A stretch of DNA of 64,000 nt, from the NCBI RefSeq assembly GCF_003334785.1, contig NZ_QOWV01000007.1; one strand, given 5' to 3'. Position numbers and translations under genes: made by a program. The DNA comes from Escherichia coli (GTDB lineage Bacteria; Pseudomonadota; Gammaproteobacteria; Enterobacterales; Enterobacteriaceae). The stretch's first letter is position 1. Every line of letters starts with the position of its first letter. Positions 6,938 to 11,610 of this stretch are shown in pieces. The notes under the pieces were generated by a model, which was not told the origin of the DNA, ran no database searches, and worked only from the letters and a program-made list of their open reading frames with translations.

Positions 6938-7762
6938 ATGGATAAACCAAAGGCGTACTGCCGCCTGTTTCTCCCCAGCTTTCTTTTACTTTCGGCTTGT
7001 ACCGTTGATATCAGCCAGCCAGACCCATCAGCCACAGCAGTAGATGCCGAGGCAAAAACATGGGCTGTCAAATTCCAGCATCAAAGCTCTTTCACCGAAC
7101 AATCAATAAAAGAAATAACGGCACCTGATCTCAAACCCGGCGATTTGCTGTTCTCCTCAAGCCTTGGGGTAACCTCATTTGGAATCCGCGTCTTCAGCAC
7201 TTCCTCTGTGAGTCACGTTGCAATCTTTCTGGGTGATAATAACGTTGCAGAAGCGACAGGCGCTGGCGTCCAGATCGTTTCCCTTAAAAAAGCGATGAAG
7301 CATAGTGATAAGCTTTTCGTCTTACGAGTCCCGGATCTTACCCCGCAACAAGCCACAGATATCACCGCGTTTGCCAATAAAATCAAAGATAGCGGTTATA
7401 ACTATCGCGGCATTGTCGAATTTATTCCCTTTATGGTGACTCGCCAGATGTGCTCACTGAATCCGTTCTCCGAGGATTTTCGCCAACAGTGCGTCAGCGG
7501 CCTGGCGAAAGCGCAGTTAAGCAGTGTGGGCGAAGGAGACAAAAAGTCGTGGTTTTGTTCGGAATTTGTCACGGATGCCTTTGCCAAAGCCGGGCATCCA
7601 CTTACACTGGCGCAATCGGGCTGGATTAGCCCTGCCGATCTGATGCATATGCGTATTGGTGATGTCTCTGCGTTTAAGCCAGAAACGCAGTTACAGTATG
7701 TTGGGCACCTGAAGCCTGGGATTTATATCAAGGCGGGTCGCTTTGTTGGTTTGACCCGGTGA
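6938..7762 (+). CDS. yaeF: Putative lipoprotein, YaeF/YiiX family (predicted permuted papain-like hydrolase)
   Basis: Start chosen at MDKPKAYCRLF (274 aa); signal peptide with lipobox LLSAC; conserved Cys in WFCSEF. Confidence 0.85.
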   Translation: MDKPKAYCRLFLPSFLLLSACTVDISQPDPSATAVDAEAKTWAVKFQHQSSFTEQSIKEITAPDLKPGDLLFSSSLGVTSFGIRVFSTSSVSHVAIFLGDNNVAEATGAGVQIVSLKKAMKHSDKLFVLRVPDLTPQQATDITAFANKIKDSGYNYRGIVEFIPFMVTRQMCSLNPFSEDFRQQCVSGLAKAQLSSVGEGDKKSWFCSEFVTDAFAKAGHPLTLAQSGWISPADLMHMRIGDVSAFKPETQLQYVGHLKPGIYIKAGRFVGLTR

Positions 7763-7764
7763 TA

Positions 7765-7890
<126 letters not shown>

Positions 7891-7961
7891 AACGTGCAAA
7901 TTCAAAATGTTGAAATATATCCTTCTGGCCTGTTTTGCGTTTGTTTCTGTCTCAAGACGGG

Positions 7962-8672
7962 TTACTGCCCCAAACTACTGCAATCCTGGTTGGGGTAAAA
8001 TTTCCCTGCCGTATCGGGTGCCAATACTTTAGTCGGCGCACCGGTATCCGGATTACCCTCAAGCGTAAAGTGACCTTCTACTGACAGTAACACCGGTTTT
8101 TCACTGTGACCGCGCGCAGCCAGGTAGCTACGCTCCAGCTCTGCGTTATTCGCTACCATGAAACGTTTTCCGGTCGCGCAATCAGTGAAGGTCGCCGCAT
8201 CAGCCATATAAAAATACATGCCCCGCAGGGTCATCGGCGTCATAGGTAAACTGGATTGTGCCGCTTCCAGCGTATAGTTGAACTGCGATTCAATCGGATT
8301 GCCTTCACGATCGAGCATCTCCAGCGCATCGCCTTTCGCCCGATAATATGACTTTTCACCTTTGCTGTCGGTTAATACCAGCTTGTCAGCGGTTCGCGCC
8401 CATGTACCGTAGGAAGCGAAGGAGGAAGGTTCTTCACGAGCACCGAGATAACGCTCATTCATCACCCATGTTCCGTCTTTTTCGAGGAACAGAGAGGTTT
8501 CGATTCCTTCGCAATCGGCACACGGCAGCACGCCGCGCCAACTTTGCGGCATCGGTTTCAGTTCGGCAGCCTGCGCCGGAGAAAGCGTATCGACTTCGGC
8601 CCGATTATTACATCCCATCAGAGTAAAGAGGCTGATTACAGCCATCGCTGTCACTATCGCTTTTTTCACCAT
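7962..8672 (-). CDS. nlpE: Outer-membrane lipoprotein NlpE (Cpx-pathway surface sensor)
   Basis: 236-aa ORF with lipobox LMGC and a CxxC motif (LPCADCEG). Confidence 0.92.
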   Translation of the reverse strand: MVKKAIVTAMAVISLFTLMGCNNRAEVDTLSPAQAAELKPMPQSWRGVLPCADCEGIETSLFLEKDGTWVMNERYLGAREEPSSFASYGTWARTADKLVLTDSKGEKSYYRAKGDALEMLDREGNPIESQFNYTLEAAQSSLPMTPMTLRGMYFYMADAATFTDCATGKRFMVANNAELERSYLAARGHSEKPVLLSVEGHFTLEGNPDTGAPTKVLAPDTAGKFYPNQDCSSLGQ

Positions 8673-8685
8673 CCATTCCTTCTTT

Positions 8686-9108
8686 TTATTCCCGACCGCT
8701 GCGCACTTTGCCGCGCATCGCCTTCACGCTTGATTTTTGTGCTTTCGATGCCAGCCTGCGCTCTTTCGATGCACGGGTGGGCCGCGTGGGTCGTCGGGCT
8801 TTTTTTTCTGTTGTTAATTCTTTAATCATAGCCACCAGCCGGGCCAGAGCTGCTTCGCGGTTCAGTTCCTGACTGCGGTATTCCTGTGCCTTAATGACAA
8901 TCACGCCATCACTGCTGATCAAATGATGGCTGGCGGCGAGCAGACGCTCTTTGTAATACTCTGGCAGGCTGGACGCCCGAATGTCAAAACGCAGATGAAT
9001 AGCCGTTGAGGTCTTATTAACATGCTGCCCGCCCGCGCCCTGCGCACGAATGGCGGTGATCTCAAGCTCACCATCGGGAATAGCAACATGTCGGGAAATC
9101 ACAATCAT
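8686..9108 (-). CDS. arfB: Peptidyl-tRNA hydrolase ArfB (alternative ribosome rescue factor B)
   Basis: 140-aa ORF with GGQ motif ([10 protein letters not shown]) and a basic C-terminal tail. Confidence 0.93.
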
Positions 9109-9650
9109 GAAGGTTGTTGCCAGGCGGTTAAGTTCACTTCCAGATTATTCTTATCATCCGATAACCAGATCACGCCATCCTGAATCGTTGCCTGCAGCGT
9201 CATGGTACGATCGGCAAAGGCGCTTACTTTCGCCAGTTGTTCATCGTCCAGATACCAGACGGAAAGATTGGCAAACTGCACACATTTGCTCTGATTTTGC
9301 TGCCACCAGATTTGCGCCGCCCGACTATTATAGGTAAACAGCGCCACTTCTGCGGCCTGGGTGCAGGCTTTCTTAATCCGCCGCTCATCCGGCAGCCCCA
9401 GCTCAATCCACAAATCAATGCCCAGGTGATCGTTACGCAGCCACGCTTCCGGCTCATCATCGGCACACAAACCACGGGTAAATTGCAGACGTTCATCAGC
9501 ATATTTCAGCCACGCCAGCAAGCGCAGCATCATACGCTCCTGGGTTTCTGAAGGATGGCGCGCCAGCGTCAGAGAGGCATCGAGAAACTGGTTGCGGTCG
9601 AGATCGGCCACATTAACCGTCGCTTTATAAATTGTCGCTTTAAGCGCCAT
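9105..9650 (-). CDS. yaeQ: YaeQ family protein (function unknown)
   Basis: 181-aa ORF; its stop overlaps the arfB start by 4 bp. Confidence 0.9.
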
Positions 9651-9815
9651 AAGAAAACTCCTTTCGAATCAGGAGGCCATTGTAACGGAATACGTGCAGT
9701 TGCGGCGCTGATATTGCAGAAATGAGTGTGGTATAGTCACCTTGCGAAACAGAGTTTATCTTCGTAGGCTTAGACTTGCATCCACGGTTAAGTCAGAGTG
9801 CTGACAGGAGGGCAT

Positions 9816-10016
9816 GTGGAAAAATATTGTGAGTTAATACGCAAGCGGTACGCGGAAATCGCCAGCGGAGACTTAGGATACGTTCCGGACGCGCTGGGCT
9901 GCGTTTTGAAAGTGCTGAATGAAATGGCTGCCGACGACGCCCTTTCTGAGGCTGTCAGGGAAAAAGCAGCATACGCTGCGGCAAACTTACTGGTGAGCGA
10001 TTATGTCAATGAATGA
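9816..10016 (+). CDS. yaeP: Small protein YaeP (UPF0253)
   Basis: 66-aa product from a GTG start preceded by AGGAGG; ORF-track entry begins 6 codons upstream at an ATG. Confidence 0.8.
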
Positions 10017-10263
10017 TACGTATCAACCAATCAATTGTGATGATTACGATAATCTTGAGCTCGCCTGCCAGCATCATTTAATGCTGACACTTGAGCTGAA
10101 AGATGGCGAAAAATTGCAGGCAAAAGCCAGTGATTTAGTCTCCCGCAAAAATGTGGAGTACCTGGTCGTCGAGGCCGCTGGCGAAACCCGCGAGCTGCGT
10201 CTGGATAAAATTACCAGCTTTAGCCACCCGGAAATCGGTACGGTGGTGGTAAGCGAATCCTGA
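10009..10263 (+). CDS. rof: Rho-binding antiterminator Rof (YaeO)
   Basis: 84-aa ORF starting [17 protein letters not shown]; 8-bp overlap with yaeP. Confidence 0.9.
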
Positions 10264-10272
10264 TTGACTTTC

Positions 10273-10305
10273 GCCGGATGCGACGTTTGATGCGTCTTAT
10301 CCGGC
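10273..10305. repeat. REP-like palindrome, likely bidirectional terminator
   Basis: GCCGGATGCGACGTTTGATGCGTCTTATCCGGC between convergent rof and tilS. Confidence 0.7.
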
Positions 10306-10311
10306 TTTCAC

Positions 10312-11610
10312 TTAACTAAGCGTTTTCTGCCAGACAAAACTTACGCCATTCTCACCTTCAGCCACACCTTCTTGCGTCACAAATACCCCTGCCGCCGCAA
10401 TCAGCGTTTCGCCATAAAACAGCAGTGGCGTGGTGTCACGTAGCCACGGCGGCACGCCCAGCTCTTGCCAGATTTTCTTTAGCTTACGTCCGCCGTTACG
10501 CCCGACAATATGCAGCAATCCTGGCGCTTTGAAACGCACGCTGACCGCTTCGTCTGCACGCGGAGGGCGAATATCGCCTCCCGCATTAAGCTGTACACTT
10601 CCCAGCCCCGCCGGTAATTCCAGCGGTTGAAGCCACGTCTGCCACGGCACAATGTTTTCGCTTTGCCCGGTGACGGATTTAATCCACCACAGTTGCGACT
10701 GATAGCGTCGGATTTCAAACGCGCCCAAACGTAAACAGGGTGAGGCATCTTCCCGCGCCAGCGCCACTTCCTGCCAGATCCTCACCAACGCGTCGCGGGA
10801 AGGCATCGGTGCATTCTGCCCTGCCAGCCAGCGGCGGATAATCGCCGCGCGGCGGGCATCACTCATCGCCAGCATTGGCACAATCTGCAGCGTCCCCTGC
10901 GGCGATTGACAGTGTGCTAAATCATCTGCCAGCAGTTCATCCAGCAGGCTCTCTTGTTCAGCACAAAGTGCGGCGCTGCGGGCCGTTGCTTCGGCAAAAT
11001 GCGGCCAACGCTGCTGCAATAACGGCACTACGCGCAGGCGCAGAAAGTTACGATCGTATGAGTCGTCCTGATTACTTTCGTCTTCAATCCAGCGTAAATC
11101 ATACTGACGCGCCCACTGCACCAGTTCCCCCCGCGTGCGGGCGAGCAACGGGCGAATAAGCCGCGTTCCGGCAAACTCCGAGACTTCCGCCATAGCCGAA
11201 AGCCCGGCAGGGCCACTGCCGCGTTTTAGCGCCAGCAGAAAGGTTTCACATTGATCGTCGAGATGTTGCGCGGTGACCAGCACTTCACCGGGCAACAAGG
11301 TGCGGGCAAATGCCTGATAACGTGCCTGCCGCGCCTGGGCCTCAATGCCCAGTCCTTCTTGCGCAAGTTGTACGCGTTCGACCACCAGCGGCACCTGCCA
11401 CTGTTGGCAGACGTTTTCGCAATGCGTAACCCAGGCATCGGCATTGGCACTTAAACCGTGATGCACATGAATAGCGCGCAGAGCGACACCCGGATTTTCC
11501 GTCCGCCACTGCACCAACTGATGCAGCAGAACGGTGGAGTCAAGCCCGCCGCTAAAGGCCACCAGAATCTGGCGTGAGGTGAGAAGTTGTCTATTGAGCG
11601 TGAGTGTCAT
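10312..11610 (-). CDS. tilS: tRNA(Ile)-lysidine synthetase
   Basis: 432-aa ORF with PP-loop motif SGGLDS near the N-terminus. Confidence 0.95.

Follow-up and report, generated by a model that had tools for sequence, protein, structure and literature searches.

Overlapping gene pairs at the Escherichia coli yae locus: junction anatomy, the start of rof and the linkage of yaeQ with arfB

Genes and flanking elements of the locus

The window analysed here is a stretch of 64,000 nucleotides of Escherichia coli DNA, and all positions are counted from its first base. The region of interest matches E. coli K-12 MG1655 at 100% identity and is present, at a conserved position, in all but one of 5426 complete E. 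coli genomes; it is core genome and non-mobile, and corresponds to the well-annotated yae locus of E. coli K-12. Two small operons lie back to back and diverge, yaeQ-arfB-nlpE on the minus strand and yaeP-rof on the plus strand. The open reading frames of arfB, yaeQ, yaeP and rof had been placed in an earlier annotation made from the letters of the DNA (the sequence-only reading), and these positions proved exact when compared with the sequence and the ORF list. The arrangement is already known: it is drawn in Fig. 1e of Said et al., Nat Commun 2024 (PMC11018626; see also Fig. 8e), who describe the same DNA and report an overlap with the preceding ORF of 4 nt for arfB and of 8 nt for rof, with a view of yaeQ-arfB limited to E. 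coli. As first put forward, the finding thus restates a published locus description and matters little.

Downstream of nlpE the locus is bounded by a REP-type repeat (7807-7883, no strand assigned) that matches the Rfam family naRNA4 (RF02564) at 92.8 bits, compared with a gathering score of 59.5. A second, weaker naRNA4 match follows rof at approximately 10199-10306 (27.9 bits, E = 0.05). These matches agree with the REP elements reported to bracket the yae locus (PMC11018626). The Rfam search returned REP/naRNA4 matches only, with none for the leaders or junctions, and no inverted repeats of at least 12 nt occur in 7700-10400.

The first gene of the minus-strand operon, yaeQ (9105-9650, minus strand), encodes a protein of 181 residues, assigned to the YaeQ family by a full-length match to Pfam PF07152 (E = 3e-71) and by identity to solved YaeQ structures. 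It has the PD-(D/E)XK superfamily fold, with a restriction-endonuclease-like α/β core. Across 80 homologues the acidic positions E35, E/D66 and E/D83 and the basic residues K9, R39, R43 and R148 are invariant; K94 is a further invariant basic residue. Strand 3 carries E-x-G instead of (D/E)xK; the title of Guzzo et al. 2007 refers to the YaeQ motif as a 'variation of the motif'. The statement in the sequence-only reading that yaeQ has been reported as a suppressor of rfaH defects is correct (Wong et al. 1998, as cited in PMC9252766 and PMC3424549). A predicted -10 hexamer of the yaeQ promoter, TACAAT (9679-9684, minus strand), corresponds to a conserved 'attgta' block in an intergenic alignment of 26 Enterobacterales loci.

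The second gene, arfB (yaeJ; 8686-9108, minus strand), encodes the stop-codon-independent peptidyl-tRNA hydrolase ArfB (140 residues). Its identity follows from a full-length match to NCBIfam NF006718 (201 bits, cut-off 100), a GGQ catalytic motif at residues 26-28 (window positions 9033-9025) and a basic C-terminal tail. ArfB rescues ribosomes and releases peptides unaided in vitro, and in a strain devoid of ssrA and arfA it supports growth only if overexpressed from a multicopy plasmid (PMC3989581). The third gene, nlpE (7962-8672, minus strand; placed by the ORF list, the sequence and the RefSeq annotation), has its own ribosome binding site, GAAGGA, and starts 13 nt past the arfB stop. Most Enterobacterales loci have it on the downstream side of arfB, and the entire tilS-to-nlpE block is syntenic within this bacterial order.

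On the plus strand, yaeP (9816-10016) runs from a GTG start, preceded by the ribosome binding site AGGAGGG (9806-9812), to a TGA stop at 10014-10016. Its 66-residue product is a small three-helix protein of the UPF0253 family, with full-length matches to NCBIfam NF003436 (137.4 bits, cut-off 99) and Pfam PF06786 (E = 8e-34) and a solved structure (PDB 5H1N). The family is small, amounting at 50% identity to 36 clusters in a set of 1.84 billion representatives. A promoter scan predicts a yaeP-rof promoter at 9708-9737 (plus strand; CTGATA, an 18-nt spacer and an extended -10 element, TGgTATAGT), of which the -35 element and TGnTATAGT are kept from E. coli to Yersinia and Pectobacterium. Within the 5' leader of yaeP, alignment of Enterobacterales loci revealed a conserved core, CTTCGTAGGCTTA (9760-9772, plus strand). 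Most Enterobacterales loci whose leader can be recognised retain it between variable flanks; the exceptions are three loci with one or two substitutions (L005, L014, L026) and four from which it has been lost (L020, L021, L023, L024). Neither an Rfam match nor a consensus structure by RNAalifold was obtained for this core and leader. A hairpin in the leader was considered and dropped, as variation in its putative 5' arm is uncompensated; a sequence-specific site is preferred.

The last gene, rof (yaeO; 10003-10263, plus strand), encodes an Sm-like inhibitor of Rho. The assignment is based on a full-length match to NCBIfam NF008636 (176.7 bits, cut-off 117), the Sm-like fold and conserved N-terminal residues that contact Rho. 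Structures are available as PDB 1SG5 (86 residues, including the 10003 start), 8W8D (84 residues) and 8PTM. Cryo-EM structures show that Rof by itself binds Rho, and it inhibits termination in vitro (PMC11018626); excess Rof inhibits growth (PMC11018626, PMC9765468).

The two junctions and the start codon of rof

Gene overlap alone is nothing unusual in this DNA. Eight of the 39 co-directional gene pairs in the first 50 kb of the window are overlapping neighbours, and some of these, such as rcsF/tsaA, rnhB/lpxB and mtnN/btuF, have no functional relation. At the yaeQ-arfB junction, the TGA stop of yaeQ and the ATG start of arfB share the sequence ATGA (9105-9108, minus strand), so the 4 bp overlap claimed in the sequence-only reading is correct. 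Among the 27 Enterobacterales loci that carry arfB, the junction is ATGA in 19 and TGATG in 2, while in the remaining 6 the two genes are 1-7 nt apart. GTG starts are frequent in the arfB relatives, which have 4- or 1-nt overlaps or 1-7-nt gaps, and spacing never exceeds 7 nt (27/27) despite the varying junction sequence. No Shine-Dalgarno or purine-rich motif precedes the E. coli arfB ATG in the sequence. The RNA fold of this junction is worse than that of shuffled sequence (z = +1.3).

The extent of the yaeP/rof overlap depends on which start codon is assigned to rof. The RefSeq CDS starts at ATG 10003, yielding 86 residues and an overlap of 14 nt (10003-10016, plus strand), while the UniProt-style model starts at ATG 10009, yielding 84 residues and an overlap of 8 nt. 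The 8 bp claimed in the sequence-only reading thus holds on the shorter Rof model but not on the longer one, which comparison between species favours. A putative translation-initiation region lies inside the end of yaeP (9987-10005, plus strand), where GGTGA (9992-9996), which can pair with the 16S rRNA 3' end, is followed by a 6-nt spacer and ATG 10003-10005. Both GGTGA and ATG 10003 are kept in all 29 loci compared, including Rosenbergiella, from which yaeP is gone. Codon 10009, by contrast, reads ACG, ATC or GTG in 7 of the 29. The comparison suggests that the native start of rof is probably ATG 10003 and that the real overlap is 14 nt. This differs from the description by Said et al. 2024 (PMC11018626), in which rof has the 84-residue start and no Shine-Dalgarno sequence. 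The RBS-like motif of rof may allow initiation that is partly or wholly independent of yaeP.

The geometry of the yaeP/rof overlap is identical in all 27 yaeP-bearing Enterobacterales loci. Such uniformity of a 14-nt overlap exceeds what the tuning of expression alone would obviously need. Across 27 species, the synonymous sites of yaeP codons 58-64 are near-invariant, which is not the case for Leu, Val and Ala codons elsewhere in yaeP, and the frozen sites include codons 58-62, which lie upstream of the overlap. These frozen synonymous sites point to selection on the junction sequence. A predicted local hairpin spans the GGUGA and AUG of rof; its 5' arm is invariant, hence uninformative on covariation, and the fold of the junction RNA (-27.3 kcal/mol, z = -1.1) is not significant.

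Linkage of the pairs across genomes

The comparison covered 80 genomes, from Enterobacterales and from outside that order (50 non-enterobacterial yaeQ loci), with 8-16 kb of local sequence per locus. Distant YaeQ sequences were drawn from PDB alignments, the protein homology search having yielded close relatives only. Within the Enterobacterales both junctions are kept, in line with the conservation that the sequence-only reading had proposed as a check. Members of the pairs are nevertheless separable: Pectobacterium and Brenneria have lost arfB while retaining yaeQ, and Rosenbergiella has lost yaeP while retaining rof. Five loci carry yaeP without a nearby rof (L082, L084-L087), and distant yaeP genes adjoin DUF4250, sulA or an ABC transporter rather than rof. 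Said et al. (PMC11018626) likewise report that the overlap of yaeP and rof is constant in Enterobacteriaceae, while the two are uncoupled in Vibrionaceae; in V. cholerae they are located on different chromosomes. Within the 8-16 kb examined, neither YaeQ/ArfB nor YaeP/Rof showed the pattern of obligate partners, that is, co-occurrence and linkage wherever either gene is found.

Outside the Enterobacterales, arfB is absent within 8 kb at 45 of the 50 yaeQ loci. The remaining five have both genes on one strand in an order opposite to that of the Enterobacterales, arfB coming directly before yaeQ and separated from it by 1, 11, 12, 126 and about 268 nt. All five upstream genes score 183-194 bits and pass the ArfB equivalog cut-off of 100. 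The outer neighbours of these pairs differ (valS, prfC, rmlC and others), which suggests that arfB and yaeQ move together as a pair. In a neighbour-joining tree of YaeQ, which has no support values, these loci are dispersed, and the number of independent origins is uncertain beyond the two gene orders. ArfB is the sole neighbour of yaeQ that recurs across genera outside the Enterobacterales, all other neighbour clusters being specific to one genus (Pseudoalteromonas, Shewanella, Marinobacter or Aeromonas). Judged from gene order, the recurrence in reversed order is a genuine hint, independent of the E. coli junction, that the two genes are functionally linked. An explanation of the overlaps in terms of expression leaves this adjacency in five unrelated contexts unaccounted for.

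Interpretation of the overlaps

We favour, with a probability of roughly 0.6, the reading that the overlaps set the expression of arfB and rof; they do not in themselves show YaeQ to be a subunit of ArfB, or YaeP of Rof. In both pairs the start of the second gene sits within the end of the first, and ribosomes ending yaeQ or yaeP would be poised to begin arfB or rof. Because arfB lacks an RBS, it would probably depend on re-initiation at ATGA, which fits the low native ArfB activity. Initiation of rof would most likely occur at ATG 10003 through the weak GGUGA site within the last yaeP codons. The overlaps may thus constitute a device for low, proportionate expression of factors that are harmful or unneeded in excess. 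Both junctions have the anatomy of coupled pairs, with a start codon in or beside the upstream stop, weak initiation signals and an arrangement conserved in 27 of 27 loci each. Tight joins conserved across Enterobacterales make translational coupling plausible, and to this extent the sequence-only reading stands; a role of YaeQ and YaeP as accessory or regulatory subunits of the downstream factors, which it had drawn from the arrangement, is not supported.

The pairs trpE-trpD and trpB-trpA are classic cases of translational coupling, with TGATG or ATGA junctions, and their coupled products are subunits of one enzyme. The yae pairs resemble them in that stop and start overlap or abut, the downstream RBS is weak or absent and the geometry is conserved. 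They differ in that the members of yaeQ/arfB and yaeP/rof can be separately lost or moved.

Genome compaction and inherited gene order might also account for the overlaps, in which case the downstream genes would be translated independently and the junctions would have no regulatory meaning. About 1 in 5 co-directional pairs in the window overlap, unrelated genes included, the synteny from tilS to nlpE means that junction conservation could be mere inheritance, and rof possesses an RBS-like motif of its own. We consider this explanation improbable, as independent initiation of arfB would be very poor given the lack of a recognisable RBS, the synonymous sites at the yaeP end have been frozen over a long evolutionary span, and the distance between yaeQ and arfB is capped at 7 nt in 27 Enterobacterales while the junction sequence varies. 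A slightly lower probability still attaches to YaeP being a dedicated partner of Rof, either an antitoxin-like antagonist or chaperone or a co-factor acting on Rho. The architecture does recall type II toxin-antitoxin systems, in which a small upstream gene overlaps a growth-inhibitory one, and the identical overlap in 27/27 yaeP-bearing Enterobacterales would suit such a role. A yaeP-rof clone was also tolerated while inducible rof alone blocked colonies (PMC9765468), although the vectors and promoters differed, making this only suggestive. However, overexpressed YaeP affected neither terminator read-through nor growth, rof alone being sufficient (PMC9765468), and Rof needs no partner to bind Rho or block termination (PMC11018626). 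rof persists without yaeP in Rosenbergiella, the two genes occupy separate chromosomes in V. cholerae (PMC11018626), and distant yaeP genes have other neighbours. In an AlphaFold2 model of a YaeP-Rof linker fusion (pTM 0.41; shallow paired alignment of 25-26 species, no PAE map) the domains are well folded, with no confident interface predicted. Neither neutralisation of Rof by YaeP nor binding is known. The claim that YaeP is a subunit of Rof is thus unsupported. A type II toxin-antitoxin assignment, for which a mobile, patchy locus with an indispensable antitoxin would be expected, was rejected: yaeP-rof is core and syntenic (5425/5426 E. coli), Rosenbergiella does without yaeP, and in Vibrio the two genes are unlinked.

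Somewhat better placed, though still unlikely, is the possibility that YaeQ is a metal-dependent PD-(D/E)XK nuclease of the ArfB pathway that trims mRNA or other RNA on stalled ribosomes, sharing a function with ArfB without forming a stable complex. Its cut would empty the mRNA channel for ArfB or, once release has occurred, remove the faulty mRNA. The recurrence of arfB directly upstream of yaeQ, in reverse order and varied contexts, at 5 of 50 non-enterobacterial loci favours such a link: all five genes exceed the ArfB cut-off, the pair appears to move as a unit scattered over the YaeQ tree, and ArfB alone recurs beside yaeQ across genera. YaeQ also combines a nuclease-like fold with a charged cluster invariant in 80 homologues, and in a P. 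aeruginosa yaeQ mutant the tolerance to tobramycin, which targets the ribosome, is altered (PMC3197603). Against it, arfB is missing near 45 of the 50 yaeQ genes and from the yaeQ loci of Pectobacterium and Brenneria, and the tree, devoid of support values, allows origins to be counted only as two gene orders. A published survey found the ArfB neighbourhood unconserved save for a pseudouridine synthase (PMC6514570), and ArfB, which occurs widely among bacteria and in mitochondria, is self-sufficient in vitro (PMC6514570, PMC3989581). Nuclease activity of YaeQ is unreported and its motif departs from the canonical one. The AlphaFold2 model of a YaeQ-ArfB linker fusion, with well-folded domains and the same alignment depth (25-26 species, no PAE map), reached a pTM of 0.54, about the value for two independent domains. 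Structure prediction, which the sequence-only reading had suggested as a check, therefore returned no confident packing for either pair, a weak negative that still allows interaction. The proposal of YaeQ as an ArfB subunit is correspondingly weak, since ArfB acts alone and the two genes are so often unlinked.

Nucleases that cleave mRNA in connection with ribosome rescue include SmrB in E. coli and Cue2/NONU-1 in eukaryotes. YaeQ is similar in having a nuclease fold and a gene linked to a rescue factor that needs truncated mRNA. It differs in being PD-(D/E)XK rather than SMR in fold, in a linkage to arfB confined to a minority of lineages, and in that no nuclease activity, ribosome binding or rescue phenotype is reported. 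The occurrence of both gene orders and of varied flanks (valS, prfC, rmlC), together with the active-site-like charged cluster, leaves room for a more specific version, in which YaeQ would cut mRNA so that the ArfB tail can enter an empty channel and arfB-yaeQ would form a conserved rescue module. We rate this version a shade less likely again than a general role in the ArfB pathway.

Two results reach beyond the expression-setting reading that we prefer. The assignment of an 86-residue Rof, with its own conserved weak ribosome-binding site and a 14-nt overlap, is probably a useful by-product for specialists: Rho is contacted by the N-terminus of Rof, and tagging that end abolishes activity, so that constructs built on the 84-residue model may differ from the native protein. 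The recurrence of arfB-yaeQ provides a concrete lead on YaeQ, for which four crystal structures exist, and, if the link is true, would reveal a two-gene rescue module overlooked by earlier gene-neighbourhood surveys.

Gene content and overlaps

The ORFs of the region agree with the RefSeq annotation: nlpE (7962-8672), arfB (8686-9108) and yaeQ (9105-9650) on the minus strand, yaeP (9816-10016) and rof (10003 or 10009 to 10263) on the plus strand, and tilS (10312-11610) on the minus strand. The region is 100% identical to that of E. coli K-12 MG1655, and of 5426 complete E. coli genomes 5425 carry it. YaeQ, ArfB, YaeP and Rof each score well over the threshold of their curated family. Structures were identified by sequence search for YaeQ (3C0U and three homologues), YaeP (5H1N) and Rof (1SG5, 8W8D and 8PTM), and by fold search for ArfB (2JVA and 4V95). 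An ATGA at 9105-9108 is common to the yaeQ stop and the arfB start, while the yaeP stop (10014-10016) gives an overlap with rof of 8 nt from the ATG at 10009 or 14 nt from that at 10003. ORFs, annotation and junction sequence thus bear out the genes and overlaps described in the sequence-only reading.

This arrangement is already published. Said et al. 2024 (PMC11018626) drew the locus, bracketed by REP elements, with arfB and rof devoid of Shine-Dalgarno elements and reaching 4 and 8 nt into the ORFs before them; they described the yaeP-rof overlap as constant throughout Enterobacteriaceae, and yaeP and rof as located on separate chromosomes of V. cholerae. Their REP elements were recovered here as matches to Rfam naRNA4, whose members are nucleoid-associated RNAs derived from REP elements; a strong match (92.8 bits) lies at 7807-7883 between yaeF and nlpE. 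The GeCoViz paper (PMC9252766), too, worked through yaeQ-yaeJ (arfB) to illustrate an operon-like gene pair. Nor are the overlaps unusual: over the window's first 50 kb, 8 of the 39 co-directional neighbour pairs overlap, including the unrelated rcsF/tsaA, rnhB/lpxB and mtnN/btuF. Overlap by itself carries little information on shared function.

Proposed partnership of YaeQ with ArfB and of YaeP with Rof

A scan with a YaeQ alignment, using one genome per species, yielded 80 loci (30 Enterobacterales, 50 other Proteobacteria). In 27 of 29 informative Enterobacterales, yaeQ is directly followed by arfB, through ATGA (19 junctions), TGATG (2) or a gap of 1-7 nt (6); arfB often starts with GTG and has no clear ribosome-binding site at these junctions. 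In Pectobacterium and Brenneria, arfB is cleanly lost and nlpE now abuts yaeQ. Beyond Enterobacterales, no arfB was found within 8 kb of yaeQ in 45 of 50 loci, and the two genes are dispensable as a pair in most lineages. The remaining five (three gammaproteobacterial MAGs, one Halothiobacillaceae and one Gallionellaceae genome) carry arfB as the immediate 5' neighbour of yaeQ, in the same orientation and separated from it by 1, 11, 12, 126 and about 268 nt. The upstream genes encode bona fide ArfB (183-194 bits, cut-off 100), the outer neighbours vary (valS, prfC, rmlC, an unknown small ORF), and the loci fall at scattered positions in a neighbour-joining tree of YaeQ that carries no support values. 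In two of them the pair sits amid translation genes: valS, arfB (4-nt overlap) and yaeQ in Halothiobacillaceae (L061, 4736-8552), and prfC (release factor 3), arfB and yaeQ (1-nt gap) in Gallionellaceae (L074, 5719-8558). Among the loci outside Enterobacterales, every other recurrent neighbour of yaeQ is confined to one genus. The two genes occur side by side much more often than expected by chance, and in two orders, which partly contradicts the published view that the ArfB neighbourhood is not conserved, a pseudouridine synthase excepted (PMC6514570). One database entry (P0018, Escherichia albertii, 231 aa) joins YaeQ (PF07152) and RF-1/ArfB (PF00472) domains; this single case probably arose through a frameshift or a misassembly at the ATGA junction, not from a natural fusion.

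The suggestion that YaeQ is a subunit of ArfB is weak, yaeQ being mostly unlinked to arfB outside Enterobacterales; a looser functional link, at which the recurrence in two orders hints, is a reasonable, testable idea. AlphaFold2 models of fusions with a 30-residue Gly/Ser linker (paired but shallow alignments of 25-26 species, no PAE map) lent no support to either partnership. YaeQ-ArfB reached a pTM of 0.54; both domains folded well, and confidence was low in the linker and in the GGQ loop; YaeP-Rof reached 0.41, with Rof well and YaeP moderately folded. Such values are as expected of independent domains, a weak negative given these limits.

For YaeP, a role as subunit or obligate regulator of Rof is unsupported, because distant homologues occur elsewhere and because of published experiments. 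The family is very small, forming 36 clusters at 50% identity out of 1.84 billion representatives, and no rof was found within 4 kb of the distant yaeP homologues, whose neighbours are a DUF4250 gene (1-nt overlap) in one, an upstream ABC transporter in one and an upstream sulA in three. The first of these (P0248, 57% identity; L082, 4001-4398) overlaps a 63-aa DUF4250 gene at TAATG, in a trmO-proS neighbourhood reminiscent of that in E. coli. Overexpressed YaeP leaves terminator read-through unaffected and rof alone suffices (PMC9765468); Rof alone binds and inhibits Rho (PMC11018626). A toxin-antitoxin-like reading fits the architecture of yaeP-rof but is contradicted by the distribution of the genes and by the loss of yaeP in Rosenbergiella.

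The report of yaeQ as an rfaH suppressor that the sequence-only reading mentions does exist (Wong 1998) but was contested by a 2004 paper. On the opposite strand, rof begins ~350 bp away from the start of yaeQ, and a multicopy clone carrying yaeQ together with rof, which encodes a Rho inhibitor, could mimic such suppression.

Predicted promoters, leader and translation of the two operons

The locus is best viewed as two divergent operons with promoters back to back: a conserved predicted yaeQ -10 element (TACAAT, 9684-9679, minus strand) and a conserved predicted yaeP promoter (CTGATA-N18-TGnTATAGT, 9708-9737, plus strand). From the conserved geometry we infer that, most likely, ribosomes arriving from the upstream gene would translate the downstream one. 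The arfB gene has no ribosome-binding site of its own and rof a weak, embedded one. The former fits the published insufficiency of chromosomal arfB, since cells without ssrA and arfA are rescued only by multicopy arfB (PMC3989581). Rof is toxic in excess (PMC9765468, PMC11018626).

The 5' leader of yaeP contains a 13-nt core, CTTCGTAGGCTTA (9760-9772, plus strand), that most Enterobacterales loci share, those of Pectobacterium, Brenneria and Yersinia as well as E. coli, within a varying leader. The core has no Rfam match, supported hairpin or covariation, and may bind a small RNA or protein regulator of yaeP-rof. A small hairpin, GTCAG-N4-CTGAC (9792-9805, plus strand), directly 5' of the yaeP ribosome-binding site AGGAGGG, is retained in most Enterobacteriaceae with a variable loop.

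The start of rof

The yaeP-rof geometry is the same in all 27 Enterobacterales loci with yaeP. The ATG at 10003 is kept in 29/29 rof loci; at 10009, four of them read ACG, two ATC and one GTG. Six nt 5' of the ATG at 10003 stands an invariant GGTGA, complementary to the 16S rRNA 3' end. Codons 58-64 of yaeP are nearly frozen at synonymous sites, other Leu, Val and Ala codons of the gene varying freely; a second reading frame cannot account for codons 58-62, as these precede the overlap. In Rosenbergiella (L029, 7498-8000; L030) the yaeP ORF is deleted except for its last ~30 nt, including GGTGA and the rof ATG, and the rof product has 86 aa and begins MSI. Both of these loci also lack nlpE. 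Further upstream, yaeP codons 48-49 (9957-9962, plus strand) read AGGGAA, with the rare Arg codon AGG in 23/26 loci and GAA in 26/26, a pattern that may reflect an internal Shine-Dalgarno-like element or some other constraint on the nucleotides.

Databases differ on the start, with 86 aa in RefSeq and PDB 1SG5 and 84 aa in UniProt-style annotation, PDB 8W8D and Said et al. Comparison of these loci points to 10003, the RefSeq position, as the most likely start of rof, and to a weak ribosome-binding site belonging to rof itself; the overlap with yaeP would then be 14 nt. The choice of start matters because Rof touches Rho with its N-terminus and loses its activity when tagged there (PMC11018626).
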